From a virus: a stretch of DNA of 50,578 nucleotides. Shown here one piece after another: positions 2,714-50,240 of the stretch (position 1 is its first letter; the number at the start of each line of letters is the position of its first letter). The position numbers and the translations under genes are program-made. The notes under the pieces are model-generated. The model made no database searches, was not told the DNA's origin, and was given only the letters and a program-made list of their open reading frames with translations. The stretch lies in the UHGV virus genome UHGV-1367765; one strand, given 5' to 3'.

Positions 2714-2735
2714 CTTGTCCAACACGTTGGACAAG
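2714..2735. promoter_or_regulatory. perfect 22-bp palindrome CTTGTCCAACACGTTGGACAAG
   Basis: 10-bp arms around a 2-bp centre, about 120 bp upstream of the ATG of the minus-strand ORF 2330..2593; candidate operator. Confidence 0.35.
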
Positions 2736-3412: not shown

Positions 3413-3424
3413 TTGCATGAGTTG

Positions 3425-3442
3425 CCCATCGATATGGGCAGC
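3425..3442. terminator. hairpin between convergent bor and Rz
   Basis: TGCCCAT-CGAT-ATGGGCA stem-loop between the two stop codons. Confidence 0.3.
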
Positions 3443-3443
3443 G

Positions 3444-4378: not shown

Positions 4379-4381
4379 AAA

Positions 4382-4708: not shown

Positions 4709-4751
4709 TTCGTCATCTCTCACCTCGCGATATTTGCGGGTGCTGTGTTGG

Positions 4752-4777
4752 AAATAAAAAGGCCACGCAACGTGGCC
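4752..4777 (-). terminator. Rho-independent terminator between the methyltransferase gene and the holin
   Basis: GGCCACG-caa-CGTGGCC hairpin followed by a T-run on the minus strand. Confidence 0.5.
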
Positions 4778-4784
4778 ACCAGAA

Positions 4785-5837: not shown

Positions 5838-5971
5838 GGATCAGTAAGCGTAACTCTGGTAGGCTCACTCTGCTTTTGCGCTAAAGCAGTGGGCCGTGGT
5901 TCGCTTGTGACCAGTAAGCATGAGCGAATGGCTGGCAGGTGCTACCAACACCCACCAGCCGCCCATTTTCA

Positions 5972-5999
5972 CAAATTAAAAGCCCTTCATTGCTGAAGG
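5972..5999 (-). terminator. terminator-like hairpin overlapping the 3' end of the 72-aa gene
   Basis: CCTTCA-gcaa-TGAAGG stem followed by a T-rich tract on the minus strand. Confidence 0.35.
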
Positions 6000-6205
6000 C
6001 GTCTGTAACAGCCGAACTGGTAATCTGCCAGCCCCGCCATAACCAGCTGGGTCAGTATTAACTGACAGCGTTCGCGTGAAAGGTATGTGTTTTGTGCAAT
6101 CTCCCCGACTGTTGCCGGTTTGCCGTTTAATTCATTAAAAACAACTTTCGCCGTTTCTGTCATATCTAGCTGTTTTAGCATGTTTTTTACCTTCATGGTT
6201 AACAT
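5987..6205 (-). CDS. small hypothetical protein (72 aa), possible winged-helix regulator
   Basis: ATG start; helix-turn-helix-like segment TVGEIAQNTYLSRERCQLILTQL; upstream of the methyltransferase on the same strand. Confidence 0.4.
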   Translation of the reverse strand: MLTMKVKNMLKQLDMTETAKVVFNELNGKPATVGEIAQNTYLSRERCQLILTQLVMAGLADYQFGCYRRLQQ

Positions 6206-6303
6206 GACATACCAATAACTCTTGTCTAAAAAGCCAGCAAGATAAAAAGTCAGTATTCACGACCACCAGCGTGTTTACCGTACTGCACCAGGTTTACAGG
6301 TAC

Positions 6304-6330
6304 AAAAAAACCCGCTCGACGGCGGGTTTA
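6304..6330. terminator. A/T-flanked GC hairpin (bidirectional terminator-like)
   Basis: AAACCCGC-tcgacg-GCGGGTTT with an A-run on one side, in the AT-rich region upstream of nmpC. Confidence 0.3.
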
Positions 6331-6754
6331 AGCTGTGTGGCGAAGTAACCACTCTTAACAGCATAACCAATTTTTTACGTACGTAAACCTCTAAACAATA
6401 TTTGTGAGAATGATATCGAGTGTTCAAAACACCACCACAATCACATAAGGAAAAATAAACAAATAATCATTAAATAATTTCCGACGTTATTTTCAATGAG
6501 TTTAAATTAAAGAGATGATTTATAGAACACTTATTAATAACAACCTTTAATATAATTTAGCTACCAAATTTATTTTCTTTCAGAGAATAGTCATGTACAG
6601 CATGCAATAGAAAAAGTTCAGATAAAAATAGAGATCTAGATCACAATTTAAATAAGAATCTAAAACTTATATCTTGAATTAATCACATTGATTAGATGAA
6701 TATTTGTCGCGCAGGGCATCATTTTTTAATAAATGTTCAAAAAAAGGTCTCACG

Positions 6755-7852
6755 ATGAAAAAATTAACAGTGGCAATTTCTGCTGTAGCTGCATCAGTAC
6801 TGCTGGCGATGTCTGCTCAGGCAGCAGAGATTTATAATAAAGACAGTAACAAGCTGGATCTGTACGGAAAAGTTAATGCTAAGCACTACTTCTCCTCTAA
6901 CGAGGCAGATGATGGTGACACTACTTATGTTCGTCTGGGCTTCAAAGGCGAAACCCAAATCAACGATCAACTGACTGGTTTCGGTCAGTGGGAATACGAA
7001 TTCAAAGGCAACCGTGCTGAATCTCAGGGTTCTTCCAAAGATAAAACCCGTCTTGCCTTCGCTGGTCTGAAATTCGGTGACTACGGCTCCATCGATTATG
7101 GTCGTAACTACGGTGTAGCATACGACATCGGTGCGTGGACTGACGTACTGCCAGAATTCGGTGGTGATACCTGGACTCAAACCGACGTATTCATGACTCA
7201 GCGTGCAACTGGTGTTGCAACTTACCGTAATAACGACTTCTTTGGTCTGGTTGATGGCCTGAACTTTGCTGCTCAGTATCAGGGCAAAAATGACCGTAAC
7301 GATTTCGAGAACTACACCGAAGGTAACGGTGATGGCTTCGGTTTCTCTGCTACCTATGAATACGAAGGATTCGGCATTGGTGCGACCTATGCAAAATCTG
7401 ATCGTACCGACACTCAAGTCAATGCAGGGAAAGTTCTTCCTGAAGTATTTGCTTCCGGTAAAAATGCAGAAGTTTGGGCTGCAGGTCTGAAATATGACGC
7501 TAACAACATTTACCTGGCCACTACCTATTCTGAAACCCAGAATATGACGGTGTTTGCTGATCACTTCATTGCTAATAAAGCACAGAACTTCGAAGCTGTT
7601 GCACAATATCAGTTCGATTTCGGTCTGCGTCCGTCCGTTGCTTACCTGCATTCTAAAGGAAAAGACTTGGGTGTTTGGGGTGATCAGGACCTGGTTGAAT
7701 ATGTTGATGTAGGTGCAACTTATTACTTCAACAAAAACATGTCTACTTTCGTTGATTACAAAATCAACCTGCTTGACAAAAATGACTTCACTAAAGCACT
7801 CGGTGTAAGCACTGACAACATCGTTGCTGTAGGATTGGTTTACCAGTTCTAA
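6755..7852 (+). CDS. nmpC: outer-membrane porin, NmpC/Lc (OmpC/OmpF/PhoE family), apparently intact
   Basis: 365 aa with signal peptide [23 protein letters not shown] and porin motifs; near-identical to E. coli NmpC as recalled; sits between Q and the lysis genes on the opposite strand, as in DLP12. Confidence 0.9.
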
Positions 7853-7876
7853 TCTGGTTACTAAAAGATATGTTGC

Positions 7877-7893
7877 GGGAGGCGTTGCCTCCC
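7877..7893. terminator. hairpin just downstream of nmpC
   Basis: GGGAGGC-gtt-GCCTCCC stem-loop about 25 nt after the nmpC stop. Confidence 0.35.
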
Positions 7894-7987
7894 CAACATA
7901 TAAGTGGCTCCCTCAAGCCACTTCCTTTAGAAGCACTACCTTGCTTCTGACTATATAAACCTTCTGTTATATATTACCCTTTATTTT

Positions 7988-8015
7988 GGGGGCGTTGACA
8001 CGCCCCATTTTTAAT
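7988..8015 (+). terminator. Rho-independent terminator downstream of nmpC
   Basis: GGGGCG-ttgaca-CGCCCC followed by ATTTTTAATAAAAT. Confidence 0.5.
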
Positions 8016-8039
8016 AAAATTAAGTGAACAATTAGCGTA

Positions 8040-8423
8040 TCAATTGGACTTCGTAACAACGATATCCATCTCTAACCGGATATCTAATGCCATTAACATT
8101 CCTTCAATTATTCCCTCAGCCTTCTGTAACTTTTTCCCGATATAACCATCAGAGCAACAATGCTTGCTTGCAAGTGACATGAATGTCATACCGCCGACAT
8201 AATAATCCACTAGTAAATCATGCAAATCGCTGTTGTTCTTTTTCAGACGGGCCATACATCCGCAAACGATCATCGCGTCATCATCACAACATTGCGGACG
8301 GGATTTTACTTTTGAAGGAAGTACCCCCTTAAAACCAGCAGCAATGGACGACCAGGTCACATCCTCACGGTTATTAGCTGCCCATGCCCCCCAACGCTCA
8401 AGAACCATCTGAATATCACGCAT
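8040..8423 (-). CDS. late-gene antiterminator Q (phage 82 / QuuD type)
   Basis: [18 protein letters not shown]... matches the Q82 family; cysteine cluster; the listed TTG start is 5 codons upstream of this ATG. Confidence 0.8.
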
Positions 8424-8440
8424 CAACTTTCTCCACAAAA

Positions 8441-9436
8441 TCAGGCCAGCACGCCAGTTGCCAGCGCACGATCGATAAAACGAAATATCAACTCCAGCTG
8501 GGAGCCATACTTCTCTTCAAATGCCGCGGTATCCGCATGCAGCTCGTCGTGATGCTTTCTGCACAAAGGCAATACAAAGAGGTCATGCGCTTTTGTACCC
8601 ATTCCGCCCTGACCGTGGCCTATCAGGTGGTGGGGATCATCAGCAGGCTTTCCACAACATGCACACGGCTGTGTCTTAACCCAGCGCGTGTACTTTTCGT
8701 TAACCCAGCGGCGACGTTTTGGGCGTAACATAAAAGACTCCGGCGACTCCGGATCCACTTTCAGCGCCAGCACCTTTTTCACTTTATCCTGGATGATGCT
8801 GGTGGCAGGAACCGAAGGAACAAGGTCACTTTCCCGGGTGACAGACGGCACAACAGGCTTCGGTAATCTCAGTGCCTTACGGGCTGCACTTTCCGGCAAG
8901 GCTCCCGCCAGGTCATTACGAACCAGCCACCAGCACAGTTCCGGCATTGTCACAACGTGACTGTCATCAAAACCGAGATCCCGACGCACAACAGACAACA
9001 CCCAGCGGGCACAGTTATCCGTTGCCATTGATTCCAGCCGTTCCGTGAACTGATCGCGCAGCTGGTTATCGCAGTGCCAGCACAGACGGATTGCACCCGG
9101 CGCGTGTCGCATTGTGGTCATGTTCTCGCTGTGCCAGTCGGAATGAGGCCACTGGCAGCCTTTTTCACGAAGTAACCAGCTTTCAAGACATTCCACGCCA
9201 CCAGCACGACGGATCACTGCCTCATTGCGGAACACGGCCCGAACGGCAGGATCATCCGCCAGCGGTTGTGATGCCGCCGGAACAGCACCACTGGCGAAAG
9301 ATGAATAACGTTCCGGCTCAGGCTCCAGCAGGACACGCCCCTGCATAAACAGGGGCATCAGCTCTGAACCTGGTCTGAACAATACGATCCCCATACGCGG
9401 GGCAATTTCAGGGGTCAGTAGTGCTCTCACGGTCAC
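8441..9436 (-). CDS. prophage protein with Cys/His-rich zinc-binding C-terminus (DUF968-like)
   Basis: CACCGKP...[10 protein letters not shown]...CRKHHDELH motifs; GTG start; family from memory. Confidence 0.45.
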
Positions 9437-9437
9437 C

Positions 9438-10235
9438 TCAATGAACGATATCGAGCAGCTTTAACAGCTCAGGGAATCGGGATTCGAAGAAATGCGGCTG
9501 CGTCTCGCGCGGATTTGCGGGACTGGTGATGTTCTTGCCGAACATGCAGCCTTTCGCTGTCAGCGACCAGAATTTTTTGATGTTGTTAATCGTGGTACGG
9601 CTGTATCGTTCGCGCTGCTCGACGATCCCCAGCTTCACCATCTGGTGATATGCCTGATTAGCCGTCAGGCGTATACCATACTGTTTCAGCAGTGCACTCA
9701 GTGACAGTGTCGGGCGACTTGAGCCATCGTGTGCATCAGCAGGAGCATCAATGGCATAGCGCGGTGCCAGATTCGGTAAGCCAACAGCCTCCTGGAGTTT
9801 CTGACAGGCTCCAAGCACTGAAGAGTTAGACAGGTTTAATTCCCGGCGCATAAAGTCCAGCAGAATCACACCAGCCTGCATCTTGTCAGCAGCCTGTCCG
9901 GATAATTTTTCCGGTGCGCTGGTTACCATATCGAAAGTACGGATCACCTTCAGATGGAATGACGGGCTGATCCACATTGCATAGGCATACACCAGTTCTT
10001 TGCAGACATACGTCCCCTGGTTATTTCCGCCACGAATAACGTTAACTGGCTCTATATTGACCGAGTTGCAAATCTGCAACTCGCTTATTAAACGTTCAGT
10101 TTGCTCATTGCGGAGCCAGAATGCAGGCTTATGCTTATCCAGAGAACCGGCAGCCCTGTGCAGATCGTTCAGGCTGTAACGCCCATAAGCATCACGACGA
10201 ACTTCAATACCATCAATGACCATCAGATTATTCAT
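9438..10235 (-). CDS. KilA-N domain protein
   Basis: N-terminus MNNLMVIDGIEVRRDAYGRYSLNDLHRAAG is KilA-N-like; GAGGAG RBS before this internal ATG. Confidence 0.6.
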   Translation of the reverse strand: MNNLMVIDGIEVRRDAYGRYSLNDLHRAAGSLDKHKPAFWLRNEQTERLISELQICNSVNIEPVNVIRGGNNQGTYVCKELVYAYAMWISPSFHLKVIRTFDMVTSAPEKLSGQAADKMQAGVILLDFMRRELNLSNSSVLGACQKLQEAVGLPNLAPRYAIDAPADAHDGSSRPTLSLSALLKQYGIRLTANQAYHQMVKLGIVEQRERYSRTTINNIKKFWSLTAKGCMFGKNITSPANPRETQPHFFESRFPELLKLLDIVH

Positions 10236-10254
10236 ACTTCGTTTCTCCTCTTGA

Positions 10255-10644
10255 TCAGGCGGCTGCACCCGCCGTTTTCTCGTACTTACTGATAGTGATC
10301 TCGATCTTCCCTCCCGGGATAACCGGTCCCCACTCAACCAGCATTCTTTTCACCTGACTGTCGTCTTCCCACACACCCGCGTGGGTCAGGGCGTCAAACA
10401 GCGCCTTGTTATAGTTGTCCAGATCGCGGATCCGGTTATCCGGAGGAAACAACACGATCTCCACTGAAGCAGGTGCCGACGTTGGTTTCGGCAGGCGACG
10501 TAACTGCTCAACTATTGCTGCGCACGCCGCGCTCTGGAATTTGCGCCCCGCTGCGCTTATCAGACTCTTACCAGCAAACGCCCCTTTGTTGGGGTGTCGC
10601 CAGTACGTGTTCACGCTGGGCGGGAAAGGCAAGATCAGCTTCAT
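10255..10644 (-). CDS. rusA: Holliday-junction resolvase RusA
   Basis: PPSVNTYW and RDLDNYNKALFDAL motifs of the RusA family. Confidence 0.8.
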   Translation of the reverse strand: MKLILPFPPSVNTYWRHPNKGAFAGKSLISAAGRKFQSAACAAIVEQLRRLPKPTSAPASVEIVLFPPDNRIRDLDNYNKALFDALTHAGVWEDDSQVKRMLVEWGPVIPGGKIEITISKYEKTAGAAA

Positions 10645-10967
10645 ACTTTCAGGCCCCTCTCATGTAACCAGTGGGCTGCACGCAGCCTGCCGTTTTCCTC
10701 ACCGGCAAGCAGTGCGCGGATAATCCCGACCGCCTCGCTGTCGTCGTCCTTCACCGCGGTATGAAGCGTTATCCCCCGGGCCACGCCACGCTTTATCGTG
10801 ATGACGCCTTTTTTCTCCAGTGCACGAAGATGCTCTACCGCTGCATTCACTGAACGGTATCCCAGCATGGTTGCCACCTCCTGATTGGTTGGCGGAAAGC
10901 CACGCTCTTTCTGGTAAGAAATCAGCATATCCAGCACCTGCTGCTGGCATTGAGTTAACGTCGTCAT
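10641..10967 (-). CDS. LexA-like winged-helix DNA-binding protein without a peptidase domain
   Basis: TQCQQQVLDMLISYQKERGFPPTNQEVATMLGYRSVNAAVEHLRALEKKGVI resembles the LexA N-terminal domain; stop overlaps the rusA start (ATGA). Confidence 0.55.
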   Translation of the reverse strand: MTTLTQCQQQVLDMLISYQKERGFPPTNQEVATMLGYRSVNAAVEHLRALEKKGVITIKRGVARGITLHTAVKDDDSEAVGIIRALLAGEENGRLRAAHWLHERGLKV

Positions 10968-11455
10968 TACGCCCCCACGTAATTCCCTGACAGATACCAC
11001 TCATCACTCGATACAGCGCGCTTGCTGCTTTTCCGTAAACACTGCTCACGACGCGCCAGAAAATTGTTTCGTTCTGGCTGGGAGTGGCTTTCACGGAATG
11101 CCGCCATCCACACCGTTGCAGCACGACGGTATAAGCCCCTGGACTCCAGTTCTTCTGACTGGCGGGTCAGGCACAAAATCTCCCGCGGGTCGTTAGTGCC
11201 GACATAGAAATTGCGCACAGGTCTGGTTTCACGAACTGGTTGCGGTTCCGGTTCCTGCGCTCTCTCAGTCAGGCGCGGGAAATGTCTGCGTGTATCTCCT
11301 TCACAACGGTGAGCCACACGCCCACTCTGACGTAACTTGCTTGCTGACTGCAGAACGCGCTGCCGTGAGTAACCTGCAAAAGCATCCGCAATGTCTCCGG
11401 AAGTACATCCCGGATGGGCTTCAATGAATTTCTGAACTTCATTCAAAAGACTCAT
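10967..11455 (-). CDS. PerC-family transcriptional regulator-like protein
   Basis: C-terminal LESRGLYRRAATVWMAAF...RREQCL resembles the PerC motif; translationally coupled (TAATG) to the LexA-like gene. Confidence 0.5.
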   Translation of the reverse strand: MSLLNEVQKFIEAHPGCTSGDIADAFAGYSRQRVLQSASKLRQSGRVAHRCEGDTRRHFPRLTERAQEPEPQPVRETRPVRNFYVGTNDPREILCLTRQSEELESRGLYRRAATVWMAAFRESHSQPERNNFLARREQCLRKSSKRAVSSDEWYLSGNYVGA

Positions 11456-11457
11456 GA

Positions 11458-12180
11458 TCACCCCCTGAATCCTGCCGGGATCTGGCTGTAGTCCACGTTG
11501 TCGTAACTGGATTTGAAGTACGGGTCTTCGCGTTTTTCGGTGTACGTGCTGACGGACGGTGATAAGCGCAGGGAAAGCTCATCCCATTTTTCCCGCAACT
11601 TCGACGGGCTGAGCACGTTACGGCACCAGAACGGATCGCGGCTGACGCGGCTGTACATCTCGCAGATTTGTTTGTGAGTACGACCATCCTGCACACACAT
11701 CAGGCGAATTTCGTTTGCCCAGGCTGTCCAGTTCGGTTCTTTGGGACGAACCACCTCGCCGTCACATTCGGCGGCTTGCTCGTACAGGGCGATGATTTTT
11801 TTCCAGAGCCACTGTGCGCAGGTCAAATCATCCTGCGTTCCCCACTGGCGCTTTTTAGGGCTGAATACAACCGCATCAGGATGGCGAGTTAAAAAATCCT
11901 GTTCATCCGTCTGCGTGTCCGGTTGCGAAGCGTCCGGACGAGAAGGTTTTTTATCTGACGGATCATGTTTTGATTTTACTGACGGATCCCCGCCAGATTC
12001 TGACGGGTGAAAACCCGCTTTTTTGCCAGATTTCGACGCATCAAATTTTGACGGGTCAGATTTTGATGCGTCAGATTTTGACGGGTCAGAATCTGACAGT
12101 TGAGAAAATGCCGCTGCCTGAAGCTTCGCAACGTTAAGCTGATAAACATTCGACGCATTGCGGTTATCGGAGTTACGCAA
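11458..12180 (-). pseudogene. 5'-truncated replication-initiator (O-like) remnant with a repeat-encoded Asp/Ser/Lys-rich segment
   Basis: No in-frame ATG near the 5' end (listed start is TTG); iteron-like DNA repeats encode DPSKSDASKSDPSKFDASKS; abuts a divergent plus-strand gene. Confidence 0.35.
11950..12105. repeat. iteron-like direct repeats (about 8 copies of TTTTGACGGGTCAGA-like units)
   Basis: Visible tandem units, each with a small TGAC..GTCA dyad, at roughly 16-17 bp spacing. Confidence 0.5.
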
Positions 12181-12543
12181 ATGCGCATGAATGTTTTCGA
12201 AATGGAAGGGTTTCTTCGTGGGAGATGTGTACCGCGAGATCTGAAAGTGAATGAAACAGATGCTGAATACCTGGTGCGTAAATTCGATGCGCTTGAAGCT
12301 AAATGTGCAGCACAGGAAAACAAAGTAATACCAGTGTCAACTGAACTGCCACCAGCAAATGAAAGTGTTTTGTTATTCGATGCTAACGGAGAAGGCTGGC
12401 TAATTGGCTGGCGTTCTCTCTGGTACACCTGGGGACAAAAAGAAACCGGAGAATGGCAGTGGACATTTCAGGTCGGGAGCCTTGAAAACGTCAATATCAC
12501 TCACTGGGCAGTAATGCCAAAAGCACCGGAGGCTGGAGCATAA
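12181..12543 (+). CDS. DUF551-like prophage protein
   Basis: ATG with GGAG RBS; Trp-rich C-terminus ending NITHWAVMPKAP resembles the DUF551 signature. Confidence 0.45.
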   Translation: MRMNVFEMEGFLRGRCVPRDLKVNETDAEYLVRKFDALEAKCAAQENKVIPVSTELPPANESVLLFDANGEGWLIGWRSLWYTWGQKETGEWQWTFQVGSLENVNITHWAVMPKAPEAGA

Positions 12544-12848
12544 TGACCACTTTTACCGACAAAGAACTGATTAAAGAAATTAAAGAGCGTATCAGCAGCC
12601 TTGACGTGCGAGACGATATTGAGCGCCGTGCTTATGAAATCGCACTCCTATCTCTGGAAGTAGAACCAGATGAACGCGAAGCTTATGAATTATTCATGGA
12701 AAAGCGTTTCGGTGACTTAGTAGATCGTCGGAGAGCAAAAAACGGCGATAACGAATACATGGCATGGGATATGACTCTCGGTTGGATCGTCTGGCAGCAA
12801 CGAGCAGGTATCCATTTTTCAACAATGTCACAACAAGAGGTGAAATAA
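12543..12848 (+). CDS. hypothetical protein (101 aa)
   Basis: ATG overlaps the upstream stop (TAATG); continuous with xis and int on the same strand. Confidence 0.45.
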   Translation: MTTFTDKELIKEIKERISSLDVRDDIERRAYEIALLSLEVEPDEREAYELFMEKRFGDLVDRRRAKNGDNEYMAWDMTLGWIVWQQRAGIHFSTMSQQEVK

Positions 12849-13198
12849 TGGAGCCATACAGCCTCACACTCGATGAGGCCTGTCATTTTCTTAAGATATC
12901 CAGACCGACTGCCATTAACTGGATACGCACAGGGCGTCTTCAGGCAACACGCAAAGATCCCACTAAGAATAAATCTCCTTACCTCACAACACGACAAGCC
13001 TGCATTGCGGCTCTTCAGTCTCCGCTGCATACTGTCCAGGTGAGCGCGGGTGATGGCATAACAGAGGAAAGAAAATGTCACTCTTCCGCAGAGGTGAAAT
13101 ATGGTACGCCAGTTTCACATTGCCGAACGGTAAAAGATTTAAACAGTCTCTTGGAACAAAGGACAAAAGGCAGGCGACAGAACTCCATGACAAGCTAA
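12848..13198 (+). CDS. xis: excisionase-like DNA-binding protein
   Basis: HTH-like N-terminus ([26 protein letters not shown]); immediately upstream of and overlapping int. Confidence 0.5.
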
Positions 13199-14238
13199 AG
13201 GCTGAAGCATGGCGGGTCAGCAAACTTGGTGAAATACCTGATATAACGTTCGAGGAAGCGTGTGTCAGGTGGCTTGAAGAGAAAGCACATAAAAAATCAC
13301 TGGACGATGACAAAAGCCGGATCGGATTCTGGCTTCAACATTTCGCAGGAATGCAACTAAGAGACATTACTGAATCAAAAATTTATTCAGCAATGCAGAA
13401 AATGACGAACCGGCGTCATGAGGAAAACTGGAAACTCAGGGCAGAAGCATGCAGAAAAAAAGGGAAACCTGTTCCAGAATACACGCCAAAACCAGCGTCC
13501 GTTGCAACGAAGGCTACGCATCTTTCATTTATAAAGGCCCTACTAAGAGCCGCAGAGCGTGAATGGAAAATGCTGGATAAGGCACCAATTATTAAAGTGC
13601 CTCAACCAAAGAATAAACGGATCCGCTGGCTGGAGCCCCATGAAGCACAAAGGCTGATTGATGAATGTCCGGAGCCATTAAAGTCTGTTGTTGAATTTGC
13701 ACTGGCAACAGGCTTAAGACGCTCGAACATCATCAACCTTGAATGGCAACAAATAGACATGCAGCGCCGGGTGGCATGGATAAACCCGGAAGAGAGTAAA
13801 TCAAACCGCGCAATTGGCGTTGCGCTGAATGATACTGCATGTCGCGTTTTGAAAAAACAAATCGGGAATCATCACCGTTGGGTATTTGTGTACAAGGAAA
13901 GCTGTACCAAACCAGACGGAACGAAAGCGCCAACAGTAAGGAAGATGCGGTATGACGCAAACACAGCCTGGAAAGCGGCGCTGAGACGGGCTGGTATTGA
14001 TGATTTCAGATTTCACGACTTGAGACACACCTGGGCAAGTTGGCTGGTTCAAGCCGGAGTCCCGTTGTCAGTGTTACAGGAAATGGGAGGCTGGGAGTCT
14101 ATCGAAATGGTTCGTCGATATGCTCACCTTGCACCTAATCACCTTACCGAACACGCACGGCAAATAGACTCGATCCTGAACCCATCGGTCCCAAATTTGT
14201 CCCAGTCAAAAAATAAGGAAGGTACTAATGATGTGTAA
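13075..14238 (+). CDS. int: tyrosine integrase (lambdoid Int family)
   Basis: 387 aa with the R..HxxR..Y catalytic pattern ([10 protein letters not shown]...VRRYAH); very similar to E. coli lambdoid prophage integrases as recalled; 3' end faces the att core. Confidence 0.9.
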
Positions 14239-36798: not shown

Positions 36799-37236
36799 TT
36801 ATTTCAGGCATTGCGTCCTGATGTATTCCTGCAGGTAGTTAACCTGCGCGGTTATCTTGTCGATTCCACTTCGTAGACGGTAATAATTGAGTTCAGCATC
36901 TGCTGTAAGTCTTGGGCTTTCTCCATCGCCCATGCTGCTGGCTCCGGTCGTTGACTTTGCACAGGTGGCGGCGACTTGCATGCGCTTACGACCAGCAGAA
37001 ACATCAGCACGGAGACTTTCGATAGTCGAGTTAGCATCAGCAAGCTCCTTTGTGTATCTGGCGTCAAGTTCTGCTACGTCACGTTGACGCTTCTGCATAT
37101 CAGCGATGATGGATGTGGCTTTGTCGCGCTGGGCTTTGTAGGCGATGGCGTTATCCCGGTAATGATTAACAGCCCATGACAGGCAAACGATGATGCAGAT
37201 AACCAGAGCGGAGATAATCGCGGTGACTCTGCTCAT
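36799..37236 (-). CDS. Rz: i-spanin Rz
   Basis: N-terminus identical to the prophage A Rz and lambda Rz. Confidence 0.85.
36852..37037 (-). CDS. Rz1: o-spanin Rz1 lipoprotein embedded in Rz (start taken at internal ATG)
   Basis: Out-of-frame ORF with lipobox LLVVSAC and a Pro-rich stretch. Confidence 0.65.
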
Positions 37237-37709
37237 ACCTCAATCTCTCTGACCGTTCCGCCAGCCTCTTTGAATTTTGCAATCAGGCTGTCAGCCTTAT
37301 GCTCGAACTGGCCATAACCAGCGCCCGGCAGTGAAGCCCAGATATTGCTGCAACGGTCGATTGCCTGACGAATATCACCGCGGTCAATCATCGGTAAAGC
37401 GCCACGCTCTTTAATCTGTTGCAGTGCCACAGCGTCCTGGCTTTTCGGAGAGAAGTCTTTCAGGCCAAGCTGCTTGCGGTAGGCATCCCACCAACGGGAA
37501 AGAAGCTGGTAGCGTCCGGCGGCTGTTGATTTGAGTTTCGGATTTAGCGTGACAAGTTTGCGAGGGTGATCGGAGTAATCAGTGAATAGCTCTCCGCCTA
37601 CAATGACGTCATAACCATGATTTCTGGTTTTCTGACGTCCGTTATCAGTTCCCTCTGACCACGCCAGCATATCGAGGAACGCCTTACGTTGATTATTGAT
37701 TTCCACCAT
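37233..37709 (-). CDS. R: endolysin R (lambda-type lytic transglycosylase)
   Basis: [35 protein letters not shown]... essentially identical to lambda R as recalled. Confidence 0.9.
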
Positions 37710-38016
37710 CTTCTACTCCGGCTTTTTTAGCAGCGAAGCGTTTGATAAGCGAACCAATCGAGTCAGTACCGATGTAGCCGATAAACACGCTCGTTATATA
37801 AGCGAGATTGCTACTTAGTCCGGCGAAGTCGAGAAGATCACGAATGAACCAGGCGATAATGGCGCACATCGTTGCGTCGATTACTGTTTTTGTAAACGCA
37901 CCGCCATTATATCTGCCGCGAAGGTACGCCATTGCAAACGCAAGGATTGCCCCGATGCCTTGTTCCTTTGCCGCGAGAATGGCGGCTAACAGGTCATGTT
38001 TTTCTGGCATCTTCAT
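37693..38016 (-). CDS. S: holin S (lambda type, dual-start MKM)
   Basis: [35 protein letters not shown]... matches lambda S; overlaps R by 17 nt as in lambda. Confidence 0.9.
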
Positions 38017-38258
38017 GTCTTAGCCCCAATAAGGGGATTTGCTCTATTTAATTAGGAATAAGGTCGATTACTGATAGAACAAATCCAGGCTACTGTGTTT
38101 AGTAATCAGATTTGTTCGTGACCGATATGCACGGGCAAAACGGCAGGAGGTTGTTAGCGCGACCTCCTGTCACCCGCTTTCACGAAGATCATGTGTAGAA
38201 GGCCGCAGCGTAACTATCACTGATGAATTCAGGATAGCCAGTGGATACGGCTCAGTTA

Positions 38259-38334
38259 TGGTGCTGGTTAACGGACTTGAACCGCTACCCATTCGCTTAC
38301 AAGGCGACCGCTCTACCATTGGAGCTAAACCAGC
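38259..38334 (-). tRNA. tRNA-Thr (anticodon UGU inferred)
   Basis: Hand-folded cloverleaf: 7-bp acceptor stem, D-stem GCTC/GAGC, anticodon loop CTTGTAA, T-loop TTCAAGT, 3' ACCA. Confidence 0.55.
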
Positions 38335-38339
38335 ATGTT

Positions 38340-38414
38340 TGGCGGGACAGCGTGGACTCGAACCACGATAAGAAGGTTAACAGCCTTCCGTAATGACCTT
38401 TATACGACTGACCC
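38340..38414 (-). tRNA. tRNA-like gene, anticodon GUU (Asn) inferred; possibly degenerate
   Basis: Cloverleaf with anticodon loop CTGTTAA, T-arm CGTGG-TTCGAGT-CCACG, 3' GCCA, but a U-U mismatch in the acceptor stem and a 3-bp D-stem. Confidence 0.4.
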
Positions 38415-38416
38415 AA

Positions 38417-38500
38417 ATAAAAAAAGCCACCGTTGCAACTTAAGAGTCACTAACGGCAGCTTATGCGAATAGTGTTGCTCATTTGCTCAATGATGTCAAC
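38417..38500 (-). promoter_or_regulatory. candidate late promoter pR' and tR' terminator downstream of Q
   Basis: TTGACA hexamer followed by a hairpin and T-run on the minus strand between Q and the tRNAs; element positions approximate. Confidence 0.35.
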
Positions 38501-38505
38501 ACGTT

Positions 38506-38994
38506 CTATGCTACATGTTTAATTTTCTCTACACGTTTCCGGTTTTTAAACGCACCATCCAGAACAGGGTAAATCATAAACAACGAGGAATTGAGGATTT
38601 CGTCAACTTCCCGGCGACAGGTTGCGAGCGATGGTTTTTGAATGCGCCCGCCGCCCCGGCATAACATCTTGCGAGGTCTTGCGACGCGATGATAGTAAGA
38701 TGCAATGGCGTGCTTGGAAGAGCCGTGGGCGTAGTAACTGAGGAGGATGCCAAAGGCTTTCTTGTCAATGTACATGACGGAATCGACGACCTGAGAAATC
38801 AACATTCCATCATCATCATTACACATTGGCCTTGTCATAACTCTTCCCGGCTCTACGCTCTCCATGAACTTCGCTATTACGCTGCTCATGCGCTTTTCCA
38901 GACGACCTGAATAAACCCATGCGCCCCACAGTTCAAGCCATCCATTCAGCCAATCGTGCTGCTCTTTGGTGAGGTTTAGTTCTCTTATGCTCAT
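38506..38994 (-). CDS. late-gene antiterminator Q (Q82/21 family)
   Basis: WLELWGAWVY motif shared with the prophage A Q; cysteine cluster; directly upstream of the late promoter region. Confidence 0.65.
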   Translation of the reverse strand: MSIRELNLTKEQHDWLNGWLELWGAWVYSGRLEKRMSSVIAKFMESVEPGRVMTRPMCNDDDGMLISQVVDSVMYIDKKAFGILLSYYAHGSSKHAIASYYHRVARPRKMLCRGGGRIQKPSLATCRREVDEILNSSLFMIYPVLDGAFKNRKRVEKIKHVA

Positions 38995-39179
38995 CGTCTT
39001 CCCCTCTTGCCCTGTTTGACCATCAGGACGCCGTTAACTATTACGTGACGCTCGCCTTTGCTGTCTCGGTTGTACTTGAGCACTGTTCCTCTTGCGCAGG
39101 AAAGCATCCTCGCCACTTCGGTCTGATTTCCTCGTGTCTGGATAAGAAGCTCTGGTATCGTTTGAATTGTGGCGTTCAT
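38991..39179 (-). CDS. ninH: NinH
   Basis: TIPELLIQTRGNQTEVARMLSCARGTVLKY matches lambda NinH as recalled. Confidence 0.75.
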   Translation of the reverse strand: MNATIQTIPELLIQTRGNQTEVARMLSCARGTVLKYNRDSKGERHVIVNGVLMVKQGKRGRR

Positions 39180-39538
39180 ACGTTCTCCAGTTCGGTGATT
39201 TTTATTCCAAGCCGTCCGCCTGGTACTTTCACACCACGAATTACGTGAATGTCATCGAATTGCTCGTCGTCTTCCGCAAATCCGGCGTGGATAAGGGAGT
39301 CGAGTAAACCCTTCAGGATGTTATCGAGGTCGCGGCGGCGGGAGTCTGGAACGTCTGCGATGACTTTGATGCGGAGTCGTGATTTGGTGAAAATGTCTAA
39401 CTTAAGTTGGCGGATGATTTGCTGAACGTCTTTTCGGTATTTCTGGCCTTTATCGCTGATGTAGTATTGACTTCCCCGTCTTCGCCAGTAGGTATTCACC
39501 GACGGCGGGTATGGAAGCACAAACTGATATTCGTTCAT
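39176..39538 (-). CDS. rusA: Holliday-junction resolvase RusA
   Basis: LPYPPSVNTYW and RRRDLDN motifs. Confidence 0.75.
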   Translation of the reverse strand: MNEYQFVLPYPPSVNTYWRRRGSQYYISDKGQKYRKDVQQIIRQLKLDIFTKSRLRIKVIADVPDSRRRDLDNILKGLLDSLIHAGFAEDDEQFDDIHVIRGVKVPGGRLGIKITELENV

Positions 39539-45171: not shown

Positions 45172-46524
<1,353 letters not shown>

Positions 46525-46573
46525 TCCCCACCTCAATCTCAGTAACCCAAAAACAAACTATTTTCCGTTTAAA

Positions 46574-46641
46574 AACAATGGAGTTTGTTTTTTGCACCTC
46601 CATTTACAATATTTCTTGTTTACAACATACAATCTTTCTTG
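46574..46641. promoter_or_regulatory. OL operators (three ACAA-N6-TTGT sites) with pL
   Basis: ACAATGGAGTTTGT, ACAATATTTCTTGT and ACAATCTTTCTTGT. Confidence 0.7.
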
Positions 46642-46686
46642 TAATTTTAAGCCATCAGCAGGACGCACTAACCACCATGAAGGTGA

Positions 46687-46717
46687 CGCTCTTAAAAATT
46701 AAGCCCTGAAGAAGGGC
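46687..46717 (+). promoter_or_regulatory. nutL (boxA CGCTCTTAA plus boxB GCCCTGAAGAAGGGC)
   Basis: Canonical boxA and boxB hairpin upstream of N. Confidence 0.7.
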
Positions 46718-46985
46718 AGCATTCAAAGCAGAAAGCTTTGGGGTGTGGTGAAGCCAGCTAGTCACTGGCAAGTGCTTACCTACTGTTGAGCGGTGAAGCG
46801 CTCCCAACGCTAGCAATAGCGTGGACGAGATGGGGAGCCGCGGGCGATAAGGCCGCCATAACGCGCACGTTGTCGCATGGAAAAATCGCTGGGGTGCCGG
46901 TTATACCCCTCCGAATGAGACTCAACAAGCTGGAGCTAGACTACCAGCCACCACACCACCAAAGCTAACTGACAGGAGAATCCAG

Positions 46986-47312
46986 ATGGATGCACAAACA
47001 CGCCGCCGCGAACGTCGCGCAGAGAAACAGGCTCAATGGAAAGCAGCAAATCCCCTGTTGGTTGGGGTAAGCGCAAAACCAGTTAACCGCCCTATTCTCT
47101 CGCTGAATCGCAAACCGAAATCACGAGTAGACAGCGCACTGAATCCGATAGACCTTACGGTGCTGGCTGAATACCACGAACAGATTGAAAGCAACCTGCA
47201 ACGTATTGAACGCAAGAATCAGCGCACATGGTACAGCAAGCCACGCAGTGAAATGGGTGTGACTTGTGTTGGTCGCCAGAAAATGAAATTAGGTAGCAAA
47301 CCACTTATTTGA
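46986..47312 (+). CDS. N: antiterminator N
   Basis: MDAQTRRRERRAEKQAQWKAANPLLVGVSAKPVNRP... matches lambda N (arginine-rich motif). Confidence 0.85.
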   Translation: MDAQTRRRERRAEKQAQWKAANPLLVGVSAKPVNRPILSLNRKPKSRVDSALNPIDLTVLAEYHEQIESNLQRIERKNQRTWYSKPRSEMGVTCVGRQKMKLGSKPLI

Positions 47313-47320
47313 GGTGAGAT

Positions 47321-47572
47321 ATGGAATTTCATGAAAGTGCGATTTGTGATTTTCGCGCTAACGCAAATTCAGTAAAACCACAGCCAATTGCAGTTCTTTT
47401 TAAAACAATGGGTGCGTGGGCTGTTTTATGCTTCGCCGCTGATGACACTGACGCAAGAATGGCAATAGGCCAAGAGATGGAGATGGACCCGACAAACGAT
47501 GAATTCATAATTTATGGCGCTCCATCTAATTACTTACTTGATACCTGCAACATTTACAATAAGGCTGCCTGA
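47321..47572 (+). CDS. hypothetical early protein (83 aa)
   Basis: GAGGTGAG RBS; first gene after N. Confidence 0.45.
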   Translation: MEFHESAICDFRANANSVKPQPIAVLFKTMGAWAVLCFAADDTDARMAIGQEMEMDPTNDEFIIYGAPSNYLLDTCNIYNKAA

Positions 47573-47743
47573 TGGTGGCCTTTATTTTTGGCCGTAAATA
47601 ATAGAGGTGAAGATGAACGCAGTTGAATTTACAAAATGGATGGCAGAGCAAGATATCACAGGAGCCGACGAAAAGGCTGTGTACTACATGGCTCTGCTAT
47701 GGATTCACAAAGCAAAAGAGGCTGCAAATGCTCTTGGAGGTGA

Positions 47744-47935
47744 GTGATGAAAGTAAAAATAACTGCTTCTAATACCAGTTTTATTAGTGTTGGTGATATT
47801 ACAGAAGTAATAACAAACCATGATGGAACACAAGTTATGTGGTCTGATTTTTGTAAAAGATATGAGCGAGTTAGTTGGTGTAAAAACGTATGGGGAGTCG
47901 AATACGAAGAATTACCTGAAATGCATGACGAATAA
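47744..47935 (+). CDS. hypothetical early protein (63 aa)
   Basis: ORF in the pL operon overlapping the stop of a small unlisted upstream ORF. Confidence 0.35.
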   Translation: MMKVKITASNTSFISVGDITEVITNHDGTQVMWSDFCKRYERVSWCKNVWGVEYEELPEMHDE

Positions 47936-48030
47936 GCACTGTGTATTCATTCCAACGAGTGAATACACGGAGCAATGTCGCTCGTAACTAAACAGGAGCC
48001 GACTTGTTCTGATTATTGGAAATCTTCTTT

Positions 48031-48058
48031 GCCCTCCAGTGTGAGGGCAGTTTTTTTT
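48031..48058 (+). terminator. Rho-independent terminator (tL-like)
   Basis: GCCCTC-cagtgt-GAGGGC followed by a run of 8 T. Confidence 0.6.
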
Positions 48059-48071
48059 GACGGAGTAAACG

Positions 48072-48320
48072 ATGATAAAAACTGATTACCCTGCAGATCT
48101 TAAACAAAAAGTAATAACAGCAATTAAATGCTCTTTTATCTCATGTCGTACAGATGAAGAACGATATGTCGTTGAGTGTGCAATTGTCGAGTTTCTCACA
48201 GCGATGGAATTTACCGCTGCAGAATCAATAGATGTATTAAAGCAATCAGACGGAAATGATATTGAAACGGATGATGTTATTGACCGACTAATAAAATCAT
48301 TCGAAGAAGAAATAGAGTAG
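48072..48320 (+). CDS. acidic hypothetical early protein (82 aa)
   Basis: ORF after the terminator; acidic C-terminus. Confidence 0.4.
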   Translation: MIKTDYPADLKQKVITAIKCSFISCRTDEERYVVECAIVEFLTAMEFTAAESIDVLKQSDGNDIETDDVIDRLIKSFEEEIE

Positions 48321-48403
48321 CCGCCTGAGCGCGGCTTTACCGCATACCAATAATGCTTCACGAGAGGCATTTTCGTTATGCAATCAAATATAAGGAGTTA
48401 CCC

Positions 48404-48538
48404 ATGATGCACTTTCAGCTCGCGGGTAGCGGCGTCATGTCCGCTTTCTACCCGCACGAATCTGAATTATCACGCCGAGTTAAACAATTAATCAGAGCAG
48501 CAAAGAAACAACTGGAGGCGTTATGCGCAATGAAATAG
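48404..48538 (+). CDS. CIII-like protein (protease-inhibitor regulator of CII)
   Basis: AAGGAG RBS; short protein with an amphipathic helix (SELSRRVKQLIRAAKKQLEA) in the cIII position. Confidence 0.4.
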   Translation: MMHFQLAGSGVMSAFYPHESELSRRVKQLIRAAKKQLEALCAMK

Positions 48539-48931
48539 CCATCAATCACCAGATGCTTCGTGCTGCACAGAACAAAGCAGTAATAGCCAGATTTATTGGT
48601 GATTCCAAAATGTGGCTTGAAGCAAATAAAGCGATGAAATCAGCTATCAACCTTCCGTGGTATCGCAGGAAATGAGTTTTACAGATAACTGGTCAGACGA
48701 AGAATTCATTCGTCAGATGAAAGAATTAATCGGTAACGAAGGAGATATTCATGTCACTTGCAACCACAGTGAAGGAGAGCAAGTTACAGAGGCGCATGTA
48801 CACGCAGAAAGCTCTCTGGTATCGCCATAATGGTGACCGCGAAGGAATGCGGGTATGCCTTAACTTGTCCCGAGTCGAAGTATTAAATCAGCGTTATTTC
48901 CTTGGGCCGTGTCCATTCTGAGAACAATCAT

Positions 48932-49537
48932 ATGAGCAAAGAATTTTACGCAAGACTGGCAGCTATTCAGGAGAATCTGAACGCGCCAAAGAATCAGTAC
49001 AACTCATTCGGTAAATATAAATACAGAAGCTGCGAAGACATTCTTGAAGGCGTTAAGCCGTTACTGAATGGCCTGTTTTTATCAATCAGCGATGAAGTTG
49101 TGTTGATTGGTGATCGGTATTACGTGAAAGCCACGGCAACTATTACCGATGGCGAAAACAGCCATACGGCAACCGCTCTTGCACGAGAGGAAGAAAGCAA
49201 GAAAGGAATGGATTCTGCACAAGTTACGGGAGCTACAAGCTCTTATGCACGCAAGTATTGCCTCAATGGTTTGTTCGGCATTGATGATGCGAAAGATGCA
49301 GATACAGACGAGCATAAACATCAGCAGAACGCAGCAGCAAAGCAATCAAAACCATCACCTACATCTGAACAGGTTCTAAAAGCATTCACTGACGCAGCAA
49401 TGCAGAAAAACACCGTGGAAGATCTTAAACAGGCGTTCGCCAAAGCGTGGAAGATGCTCGAAGGCACACCGGAGCAGCACAAAGCGCAGGACGTTTACAA
49501 CATCAGACGAGACGAATTAGAAGGAGCGTCTGCTTAA
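48932..49537 (+). CDS. erf: Erf single-strand annealing recombinase (P22 Erf type)
   Basis: MSKEFYARLAAIQENLNAPKNQYNSFGKYKYRSCEDILEG... matches P22 Erf as recalled. Confidence 0.85.
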   Translation: MSKEFYARLAAIQENLNAPKNQYNSFGKYKYRSCEDILEGVKPLLNGLFLSISDEVVLIGDRYYVKATATITDGENSHTATALAREEESKKGMDSAQVTGATSSYARKYCLNGLFGIDDAKDADTDEHKHQQNAAAKQSKPSPTSEQVLKAFTDAAMQKNTVEDLKQAFAKAWKMLEGTPEQHKAQDVYNIRRDELEGASA

Positions 49538-49920
49538 TGGCACATTCGATTACTGTAAGACTAAACAAGCCCGCAAGAGAGTTTCAGGCCGGGGAAAATA
49601 TCGGATTCAACATCCGTGCTGGCGTTCAGTATTACGATCGCCAGACAAAAAAGAAAGAATGGACAAACTACAGCGCCGTTGTATTTGCCAAGCCGGGAGC
49701 GCAAGCGGATTACTACCGTAGCGTTCTTGTTGAAGGTGGCATTGTGGAAATTACCGGAGAAAACATCAGGGTTGATGTTTATCAGGGGCAAAATGGTCAA
49801 TCAATCACTCTTGAATTACTGAATGCAAAGATTGGATTTGCAGCTTCAGGAAATGGCCCGCAGCAGCAAAGTAGTAACCAGCAGAACACTCCTGTATACG
49901 ACGATTCCATCCCATTCTGA
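49537..49920 (+). CDS. ssb: phage single-stranded DNA-binding protein
   Basis: OB-fold-like N-terminus and acidic C-terminal tail ending DDSIPF; start overlaps the erf stop (TAATG). Confidence 0.7.
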   Translation: MAHSITVRLNKPAREFQAGENIGFNIRAGVQYYDRQTKKKEWTNYSAVVFAKPGAQADYYRSVLVEGGIVEITGENIRVDVYQGQNGQSITLELLNAKIGFAASGNGPQQQSSNQQNTPVYDDSIPF

Positions 49921-49943
49921 TTCAGAAAAATAAGGATTTAATC

Positions 49944-50240
49944 ATGCCAGCGCCTCTGTATGGTGCGGATGACCCGCGCCGCTGTTCCGGCAATTCCGTA
50001 TCGGAGGTGCTGGATAAATTCAGAAAAAACTACGATCGGATAATGTCGCTACCGCAGGAAACGAAAGAGGAAAAGGAATTTCGCCATTGTATATGGCTTG
50101 CAGAGAAAGAAGAGCGCGAGCGAATTTACCAGACATCAATCCGACCATTCCGCAAAGCAACATATACCCACTTCCCTGAATATATCGACCAGCGCCTGCG
50201 TAATTACCGCTCACGTTATGGCGCTATCAGTAATGACTGA
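49944..50240 (+). CDS. hypothetical early protein (98 aa)
   Basis: AAGGA RBS; downstream of ssb. Confidence 0.45.
   Translation: MPAPLYGADDPRRCSGNSVSEVLDKFRKNYDRIMSLPQETKEEKEFRHCIWLAEKEERERIYQTSIRPFRKATYTHFPEYIDQRLRNYRSRYGAISND

Follow-up and report, generated by a model that had tools for sequence, protein, structure and literature searches.

The slot between the late antiterminator gene Q and the holin gene S is where Stx phages carry tRNAs and stx genes. In the prophage considered here, this slot holds two tRNA candidates, and the questions they raise are whether they are functional genes, how they are controlled, and what the phage gains from them. The window, i.e., the whole stretch of viral DNA that was analyzed (50,578 nucleotides, UHGV-1367765), belongs to a prophage with myovirus-type sheath and tube genes. 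A first-pass annotation had described, downstream of Q and of a candidate pR'/tR', one good tRNA-Thr(UGU) cloverleaf and a second, merely tRNA-like gene with anticodon GUU and a mismatch in its acceptor stem, followed directly by a lambda-type S gene, with no stx. The features of the region, in the order of transcription, are listed below.

39538..39176, minus strand: RusA, upstream
39179..38991, minus strand: NinH, upstream
38994..38506, minus strand: Q21-type late antiterminator Q, 162 aa (PF06530, E=1e-24)
38499..38494, minus strand: pR' -35 element TTGACA, identical to the phage 21 feature (OL657228)
38491..38476, minus strand: Q-binding element (QBE) ATTGAGCAAATGAGCA, identical to phage 21
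38476..38471, minus strand: pR' -10 element, mapped from phage 21
38464, minus strand: late transcription start, mapped from phage 21
38463..38457, minus strand: sigma-dependent pause element, overlapping the start of tR'
38462..38415, minus strand: leader terminator tR', identical to the tR' of phage 21 and Sf6
38414..38340, minus strand: tRNA-Asn(GUU), 75 nt, with encoded CCA and G73 (ARAGORN and Rfam)
38334..38259, minus strand: tRNA-Thr(UGU), 76 nt, with encoded CCA and A73, G26 allele (ARAGORN and Rfam)
38251..38202, minus strand: 3' trailer hairpin directly past tRNA-Thr (-21 kcal/mol, z = -3.1)
38177..38131, minus strand: second hairpin, in the Sf6-type leader upstream of S (-22.5 kcal/mol, z = -2.2; weak U-tract)
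38016..37693, minus strand: S, lambda-type holin/antiholin, 107 aa, with MKM dual start (PF05106, E=2.4e-30; synteny with Sf6 genes 60/61)
37709..37233, minus strand: R, lambda-type endolysin, 158 aa (synteny with, and same length as, Sf6 gene 62)
37236..36799, minus strand: Rz spanin, 145 aa (PF03245, E=2.6e-36)
37037..36852, minus strand: Rz1, nested in Rz in the +1 frame, lipoprotein-like (186 nt, as Sf6 gene 64)

The two tRNA genes and the late promoter

The first-pass annotation had named the rejection of both candidates by tRNA-finding software as the result that would speak against it. ARAGORN calls both, and no further tRNA in the whole 50.6-kb window. Both also match the Rfam model RF00005 (gathering score 29) over its full length, from 1 to 71. 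With the whole window as search space, tRNA-Thr scores 61.2 bits (E=6.5e-11), which bears out its description as a good cloverleaf, and tRNA-Asn scores 55.3 bits (E=2.7e-09). Rfam thresholds were reached nowhere else in a scan of the whole window; a match to mir-582 at 38020-38099 was set aside as a chance hit, with 19.7 bits versus a gathering score of 84 and E=0.33.

Both sequences contain a 7-nt anticodon loop, U33, a purine at position 37, a T-loop of the form GTTCRANTC, and a CCA end. The anticodon loop of tRNA-Asn, CUGUUAA, is that of host asnT, and the loop of tRNA-Thr, CUUGUAA, is that of host thrU. Host-type identity elements are likewise present, namely G73 in tRNA-Asn and G1-C72, C2-G71 and A73 in tRNA-Thr, by the identity rules of E. 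coli AsnRS and ThrRS. Outside these elements the resemblance fades: overall identity to the K-12 genes is about 58-62% for tRNA-Asn relative to asnT, and about 69% for tRNA-Thr relative to thrU. Because these values are so low, neither gene is a recent copy from the host. Judged from their sequences, both are indicated to be genuine tRNA genes, and tRNA-Asn would not be a pseudogene.

The secondary structures were examined by covariance-model alignment. In tRNA-Asn, the non-standard pairs are U4·U69, in the acceptor stem, and U13·U22; in tRNA-Thr, it is G27xA43, which leaves an anticodon stem of 4 bp. Thus, for the GUU gene, the acceptor-stem mismatch of the first-pass annotation stands, whereas the qualification 'tRNA-like' does not, given the bit score, the CCA end, G73 and the host-type loop. 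In minimum-free-energy (MFE) folding, the MFE of tRNA-Asn scarcely beats that of shuffled sequences (z = -1.7). Folding of tRNA-Thr alone yields no cloverleaf, a known limitation of this approach for single tRNAs; its structure was settled by the covariance model together with covariation.

The gap between Q and S is 489 nt long and contains no open reading frame of 40 or more codons except short ones that overlap the tRNAs. To the first-pass description can be added that both tRNA genes are on the minus strand and that tRNA-Asn is transcribed before tRNA-Thr; the two are separated by a 5-nt spacer and co-oriented with the late operon. The immediate succession of a lambda-type S and the absence of stx agree with the Pfam assignment of S (PF05106) and with a tblastn search of the window with the A and B subunits of Stx2c, in which no match was better than E = 1.2. 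Nor were tRNAs of the ileZ-argN-argO type found in the window, in which ARAGORN calls only Asn and Thr. The Sf6 genes syntenic with S, 60/61, are annotated as 'similar to lambda S107/S105' (AF547987), and Sf6 gene 62, the counterpart of R, as 'similar to lambda R' (AF547987); R itself has no Pfam match at E<=0.001. Further downstream are a KilA-N gene and the genes for the small and large terminase subunits.

The regulatory elements upstream of the tRNAs, i.e., pR', the QBE and the transcription start, were assigned by alignment with the homologous late region of phage 21, whose features were curated from experiments. The phage 21 late region is reportedly the subject of a 1991 study by Guo, Kainz and Roberts (PMID 1704887), which is cited in the phage 21 GenBank record. 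The Q protein encoded in the window agrees with that of phage 21 at 158 of 162 positions (98%), and is 84% identical to the product of Sf6 gene 59. The tR' hairpin has a folding energy of -20.2 kcal/mol (z = -4.7) and is followed by U7; tRNA-Asn starts 4 nt past this U-run. A simple consensus scan for promoters and terminators in the interval 37900-38700 found nothing, pR' and tR' included, and is uninformative here because the -10 element of phage 21 pR' is non-consensus and the stem of tR' is interrupted by an internal bulge and appears to enclose a long loop. Control of the tRNA genes by a Q21-family antiterminator, acting through its QBE, is predicted from the sequence of this region.

By this prediction, transcripts from pR' would in the lysogen end at tR', 1 nt ahead of tRNA-Asn. 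Upon induction, Q21 would bind the QBE and modify RNA polymerase, and the modified enzyme would read through tR'. The late transcript would then yield the tRNAs first and would also carry the lysis and virion genes; RNase P and the 3' processing enzymes of the host would presumably excise the tRNAs. For phage L, excision from the late mRNA and transcription from a promoter of their own have been left as alternatives (PMC8022706).

Relatives of the cassette and cargo of the Q-to-S slot

With a 491-nt query spanning the gap, matches were obtained in 175 phage records, many of which are annotated with both tRNA-Thr and tRNA-Asn; among these records are Sf6, phage 21, SfI, BTP1, HK446 and SPN9CC. 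The tRNA-Asn gene is 100% identical (75/75) to those of phage 21, Sf6, BTP1 and L. The tRNA-Thr gene is identical to that of phage 21 at 75 of 76 positions, with G for A at position 26 and an identical anticodon arm. The phage 21 record (OL657228) annotates, in this order, the pR' -35 element, the QBE, the -10 element, the transcription start, the sigma-dependent pause element, tR', tRNA-Asn and tRNA-Thr; that of Sf6 (AF547987) labels the same tRNAs 'similar to phage 21' and places lambda-like S, R, Rz and Rz1 after them. The same tRNAs have also been described in SfI, Sf6, ST64T, PS3, 21 and L (PMC3636060, PMC8022706).

A three-way alignment locates the window between these two phages. Relative to phage 21, it is identical from the Q stop codon through tR' and tRNA-Asn, and from the -35 element to about 60 nt beyond tRNA-Thr there are three single-base differences, the first at position 26 of tRNA-Thr and the other two in the trailer. 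Its identity to Sf6 is 97% over the stretch that runs from about 38465 to S (38463-38020). The module is bounded by mosaic joints, one at about 38465 and the other at about 38197. The window has in common with phage 21 its Q, pR', QBE, transcription start, tR', tRNA spacing and trailer hairpin; phage 21 differs in having the S21 pinholin, a SAR endolysin and a U-run after the trailer hairpin, where the window, past about 38197, continues with a leader and S/R/Rz of the lambda/Sf6 type. The trailer hairpin itself is kept in the window, phage 21 and Sf6 up to the junction near 38197; the second hairpin (38131..38177) is found in Sf6 with mismatches and is missing from phage 21. With Sf6, a P22-like podovirus, and with SfI, BTP1, HK446 and SPN9CC, the window shares tR', both tRNAs, the trailer, the 243-nt leader and the lambda-type S/R/Rz/Rz1 genes. 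Sf6 differs in its diverged Q of 172 aa (84% identical) and in the QBE and promoter sequence upstream of the transcription start. The more distant parallel is the pR'-tR'-S region of lambda, which has the same plan of a Q-controlled late promoter and a leader terminator followed by S/R/Rz, with an S of the same family; the lambda leader is not known to have tRNA genes, however, and the Q/qut specificity of lambda is different.

By its sequence, the element is identified as the known phage-21-type late-leader cassette with tRNA-Asn and tRNA-Thr, joined to a lysis module of the Sf6/lambda type. This cassette is ordinary rather than unusual. A 206-nt segment with the leader and tRNAs is matched in 828 of 5,426 complete E. 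coli genomes, and at least 80% of it is covered in 347; in a prophage of E. coli ET650, the 206-nt stretch is 100% identical and the overall gene order is similar. In IMG/VR, at least 120 stretches matched an 18-nt probe from the tRNA-Asn anticodon arm, and the first 60 loci among the matches listed consist of 54 with tRNA-Asn and tRNA-Thr 5 nt apart, 2 with tRNA-Asn and tRNA-Gly(UCC), 2 with tRNA-Asn alone, and 2 without a tRNA call. Lambdoid phages of Klebsiella carry the order Asn-Phe-Thr-Arg at the same position, behind a different Q. Phage L has tRNA-Asn together with a so-called tRNA-Leu(UAA), whose acceptor and T arms are in common with the tRNA-Thr of the cassette. As a discovery, the cassette therefore has little weight, since it is already annotated in reference phages, has been described in genome papers, and occurs in about 6% of complete E. 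coli genomes.

That this slot is the one used by Stx phages, as the first-pass annotation had stated, can be seen in the Stx2c prophage of E. coli O157:H7 E32511. There, a Q21-family gene of 489 nt precedes the same pR' and tR', after which come ~27 nt from the beginning of the same tRNA-Asn. Beyond this stub of tRNA-Asn are tRNA-Ile, tRNA-Arg and tRNA-Arg (ileZ-argN-argO), and then stx2cA and stx2cB. Stx phages thus resemble the window in the use of the Q-to-S slot and in having tRNAs at the start of the late transcript; they differ in the identity of these tRNAs (Ile, Arg, Arg), in the toxin genes, and in the further morons that precede the lysis genes. The Asn-Thr and Stx modules are alternatives at this one junction. 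Different phages use the Q-to-S slot as a general site for cargo, with tRNAs only in the phage studied here and with other tRNAs plus stx in Stx phages.

Variation among the copies and codon demand

We collected 126 copies of tRNA-Asn and 111 of tRNA-Thr(UGU). The majority sequence accounts for 93 of the former and 70 of the latter, and identical tRNA-Asn copies occur in phages with unrelated neighboring genes. The G26 allele of tRNA-Thr, which is that of the window, ranks second, with 16 of the 111 copies. Single changes are mainly at D- or T-loop positions; a few tRNA-Asn copies have a change in the discriminator or the acceptor stem. Double changes that preserve pairing are found in both genes. 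A diverged tRNA-Asn from a Klebsiella phage has three, at 6-66 (A-U to G-C), 7-65 (G-C to A-U) and 28-42 (A-U to C-G), and retains U4·U69 despite them; tRNA-Thr variants have double changes at 3-70, 5-68, 6-67 and 49-65. The covariation score observed was reached by 0 of 500 shuffles for each tRNA, and pairing in controls in which the structure was slid along the alignment was 23-56%, versus 90-95% in the real structure. Because the independent events are few, we regard the support that these alignments give to the cloverleaf pairs as moderate.

The mismatch of tRNA-Asn was followed through the same collection. Of the 16 distinct tRNA-Asn variants, 14 have U4·U69 and all have U13·U22. The closest relatives of this gene outside lambdoid phages are the tRNA-Asn genes of T4-like phages (Mosigvirus) and jumbo phages, which have the same D arm, including U13·U22, but U4·G69. 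Since the mismatch is kept across variants, and since the D arm is common to the T4-like and jumbo-phage relatives, U4·U69 is a trait of one phage-borne tRNA-Asn lineage, not a sign of decay.

It is in this light that a different history of tRNA-Asn has to be judged, namely that the gene is a pseudo-tRNA in decay, or is carried along passively, kept only through its linkage to tRNA-Thr in a small mobile module. The two non-standard pairs, the MFE close to that of shuffles (z = -1.7), and the few copies with a discriminator or acceptor change could be so explained, and the authors of the SfI genome paper offer no codon rationale for Asn (PMC3636060). A decaying gene is nevertheless hard to reconcile with a score of 55 bits on the tRNA model, or with the 93 of 126 copies that are identical next to unrelated neighbors. 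The Klebsiella-phage copy, with its three compensatory double changes and its U4·U69, argues in the same direction, as does a D arm common to the T4-like and jumbo-phage genes; and it is tRNA-Asn that stays constant as its partners change. On the basis of conservation and compensatory changes, we reject the pseudo-tRNA reading; decay or mere linkage seems to us very improbable.

The cassette could also be viewed chiefly as recombination sequence, i.e., as a mosaic junction at which lambdoid phages exchange the cargo of the late leader. There are indeed traces of such exchange: the junction of the Stx2c prophage is inside tRNA-Asn, after ~27 nt; the tRNA-Thr of one IMG/VR contig has host thrU as its 3' 50 nt; mosaic joints flank the module; and the 'tRNA-Leu' of phage L has its acceptor and T arms in common with tRNA-Thr. 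Recombination at a conserved sequence is, however, an expected by-product of that conservation. It does not account for purifying selection on the cloverleaf pairs, nor for the activity that has been shown experimentally for the Thr allele (PMC12445682), and as the chief reason for the presence of the tRNA genes we consider it improbable.

A more conventional explanation is that the tRNAs supplement the tRNA pool for late genes, i.e., for ACA and for AAC/AAU codons, and have no part in the evasion of host defenses. Older genome papers ascribe these tRNAs to codon supplementation (PMC3636060, PMC8022706), and a bias toward ACA relative to the host has been reported for SfI (PMC3636060). In the window, ACA is somewhat enriched, with a frequency that varies by gene class from 10.9 to 14.7 per thousand codons and a share of Thr codons that varies from 15 to 29%, and the first place in the late transcript would give high and timely expression of the tRNAs. 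The distribution of ACA among the genes is, however, not the one expected. ACA makes up 15% of Thr codons in 26 late structural ORFs versus 27-29% in early and lysis genes; its highest frequency is in early genes, whose expression comes too soon to benefit from a Q-dependent tRNA. The abundant late genes have a single ACA each, among 21 Thr codons in the major capsid gene, 32 in the sheath gene, 31 in the portal gene, and 20 in TerL. Because these four genes avoid ACA, the case for rare-codon relief is weak for Thr, and we have downgraded it as the main reason for tRNA-Thr.

For tRNA-Asn, the codon argument takes another form. E. coli has one Asn isoacceptor, encoded by four gene copies, and AAC is a preferred codon; there is, for this reason, no rare-codon gap for Asn to be filled. 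The argument is instead one of bulk demand, in that AAC dominates the Asn codons of abundant proteins. In the major capsid gene, 17 of 20 Asn codons are AAC here, and 24 of 25 in the capsid gene of phage L (PMC8022706). No Asn bias was found by the authors of the SfI study (PMC3636060). Supplementation also leaves unexplained why the stems of both tRNAs are far diverged from those of the host tRNAs while the loops are kept. As a sufficient explanation for the cassette, pure codon supplementation is possible, though we think it somewhat unlikely.

tRNA-Thr, P2 Old, and the tRNA-Asn partner

A different picture emerges from a recent study of the Old nuclease of phage P2 (Govande et al. 2025, PMC12445682). 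Old becomes active upon inhibition of RecBCD, and kills by cleaving the anticodon stem of the host tRNA-ThrU; it recognizes paired CNG motifs at positions 28-30 and 40-42, together with A37 (PMC12445682). Lambda is a phage excluded in this manner (PMC12445682). Genes for phage tRNA-Thr(UGU) rescue the cells, in that their products resist cleavage and replace ThrU, and the determinant of resistance is the anticodon arm, with an altered CNG and loss of the 27-43 pair (PMC12445682). The tRNA-Thr of phage 21 was among those that protected cells and resisted cleavage in vitro, the protection having been observed in a plasmid toxicity assay rather than as escape of the whole phage from a P2 lysogen (PMC12445682).

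The anticodon arm of tRNA-Thr in the window, GUCGC-CUUGUAA-GCGAA, is identical to that of tRNA-Thr21; it has UCG/CGA in the CNG registers and a stem of 4 bp. Host thrU has CUG/CAG in these registers, five pairs, and A37. The tRNA of the window therefore combines what distinguishes Old-resistant tRNA-Thr(UGU), i.e., the UGU anticodon, the lack of a paired CNG, and a stem shortened at 27-43. By analogy with the allele that was assayed, from which it differs by one base outside the arm, the G26 allele would be expected to be resistant to P2 Old and protective. The phage also encodes a P22-type Abc2 protein, at 49944-50240 (PF11043, E = 5e-61). As Abc2 is an anti-RecBCD protein, it is plausible that a phage with this gene would trigger sensors of the Old type.

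We propose that tRNA-Thr(UGU) would act as a stand-in for ThrU, the only ACA-decoding tRNA of the host, so that decoding of ACA would go on when a defense of the Old type fires; it would do so because its anticodon stem is without paired CNG motifs and is shortened by G27xA43. Overall, our preferred reading is that the cassette very probably provides functional tRNAs behind a Q21-controlled tR', with tRNA-Thr as a nuclease-resistant replacement of ThrU and with tRNA-Asn as a maintained gene. There are precedents in which a resistant phage copy replaces a depleted host tRNA, namely the tRNA-Tyr and tRNA-Lys of T5 and SP15, relative to the retron PtuAB, PARIS and PrrC systems (PMC11555353), and a hypothesis has been put forward for phage tRNAs that are anticodon-loop variants (PMC10264068). 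Those cases mostly concern lytic phages with large tRNA arrays, in which resistance is often due to changes in the anticodon loop (PMC11555353, PMC10264068). By contrast, the phage studied here is temperate and has two tRNAs, which match the host exactly in their anticodon loops and differ from it in their stems.

Whether the same logic extends to tRNA-Asn, such that the Asn-Thr pair would form a two-part anti-tRNase kit, is a separate matter. Host asnT has CGG/CCG in the CNG registers, and A37, where the phage tRNA-Asn has AAG/CUU, as do the lambdoid tRNA-Asn genes in 122 copies; in the Old study, host tRNA-Asn(GUU) is among three other tRNAs whose cleavage kinetics were followed (PMC12445682). 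This coincidence is a weak one, because the host tRNAs cut by Old are many (PMC12445682). In addition, the Klebsiella-phage tRNA-Asn has CAG/CUG, i.e., CNG on both strands, and the tRNA-Gly(UCC) of some cassettes retains a CNG arm of the host type; these two tRNAs rule out the generalization that every tRNA of this slot lacks CNG motifs. All considered, a two-part kit seems to us rather doubtful. If it were true, tRNA-Asn would relieve a growth defect left by tRNA-Thr alone, or would counter some other nuclease that targets tRNA-Asn, the candidates being toxins of the colicin E5 and CdiA-CT(EC869) types. The gene is the constant member of the slot while its partner varies, in combinations such as Asn+Gly, Asn+'Leu' and Asn-Phe-Thr-Arg. 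Most likely, tRNA-Asn adds Asn-decoding capacity for AAC-rich virion genes, or serves as a second resistant replacement, or both.

The significance of the cassette is in what it indicates about its carrier. It marks the prophage as one with a Q21-type late switch, a type of switch that is associated with low-expressing Stx2c phages, and it shows the Q-to-S slot with harmless cargo in place of toxin genes. Its tRNA-Thr allele has a close relative that was recently shown to neutralize the classic P2 Old exclusion system, and the cassette makes testable the question of what role is played by its ever-present partner, tRNA-Asn.

Hairpins downstream of the tRNA genes

The sequence between the tRNA genes and S contains two predicted hairpins.

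Hairpins downstream of tRNA-Thr (window coordinates)
38202-38251, minus strand: hairpin directly 3' of tRNA-Thr, -21 kcal/mol, z = -3.1
38131-38177, minus strand: further hairpin, within the Sf6-type leader that separates the tRNAs from S, -22.5 kcal/mol

The first of these is stable and is conserved between the window, phage 21 and Sf6. Because its equivalent in phage 21 is adjoined on the 3' side by a run of seven U, it reads as a putative, unannotated second terminator that brackets the tRNA module. The window and Sf6 sequence switches exactly at the place of this U-run, i.e., at a mosaic junction near 38197. The second hairpin is GC-rich, with a weak U-tract. Since the Sf6 copy has a mismatch in the stem and a shorter U-run, this element is probably not a conserved terminator.

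Early-left operon and second prophage

On the plus strand, the main prophage has an early-left operon that encodes a P22-type anti-RecBCD protein, Abc2. This protein is of interest to the cassette because P2 Old, the nuclease that cleaves host tRNA-ThrU, is activated by RecBCD inhibition.

Early-left operon of the main prophage (window coordinates)
45491-50240, plus strand: whole operon
45491-46123, plus strand: cI-like repressor
46986-47312, plus strand: N
48353-48538, plus strand: cIII
48902-49537, plus strand: Erf recombinase
49944-50240, plus strand: Abc2

A shortened second lambdoid prophage occupies positions 1-14238, in tandem with the main prophage and in the same orientation.

Second prophage (window coordinates)
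3444-3905: Rz
3902-4378: R
4382-4804: S
4785-5837: N6/N4 DNA methylase
6704-7852, opposite strand: porin gene (PF00267, E = 2e-156)
8040-8438: Q
13075-14238: integrase

Its 3.2-kb Q-to-S slot carries the opposite-strand porin gene and the N6/N4 DNA methylase, and no tRNA; thus, within a single window, two slots of the same kind differ in their cargo.

Recombination and lineage of the tRNA genes

A recombinant cassette was found in L109, an IMGVR_UViG contig (1359-1434 and the next 80 nt). It has a normal tRNA-Asn and, after it, a hybrid tRNA-Thr, which is of the phage type over its first 26 nt and identical to K-12 thrU over the other 50; the Old-sensitive CNG anticodon arm belongs to the thrU-derived part. 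The hybrid is followed, 4 nt downstream, by a host-like tRNA-Gly(UCC).

In the Stx2c prophage of E. coli O157:H7 E32511 (NZ_CP038380.1), tR' is followed directly by a truncated phage-21-type tRNA-Asn, of which a 27-nt 5' stub is left, carrying a single G-to-A substitution (L003, about 4051-4077). The ileZ-argN-argO-stx2c module begins after this stub; that is, the junction of modules falls inside a tRNA gene.

Salmonella phage L (L131, MW013502.1) carries at 481-552 a 72-nt gene annotated as 'tRNA-Leu(UAA)'. It shares the acceptor stem, the start of the D-stem and the T arm with the window tRNA-Thr, and differs from it mainly in the D/anticodon region; by this comparison, it appears to derive from the Thr gene. 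A long variable arm is characteristic of bacterial tRNA-Leu; because the phage L gene lacks one, its annotation as tRNA-Leu is probably incorrect.

The window tRNA-Asn (38340-38414) is closer to those of T4-like and jumbo lytic phages (Mosigvirus WFL6982, L129, and an Erwinia jumbo phage, L130; about 84% match over the core) than to host asnT, and a D arm with U13·U22 is common to the lambdoid, T4-like and jumbo-phage genes. This proximity to lytic-phage tRNA-Asn suggests a phage-borne tRNA-Asn lineage common to very different phage groups.
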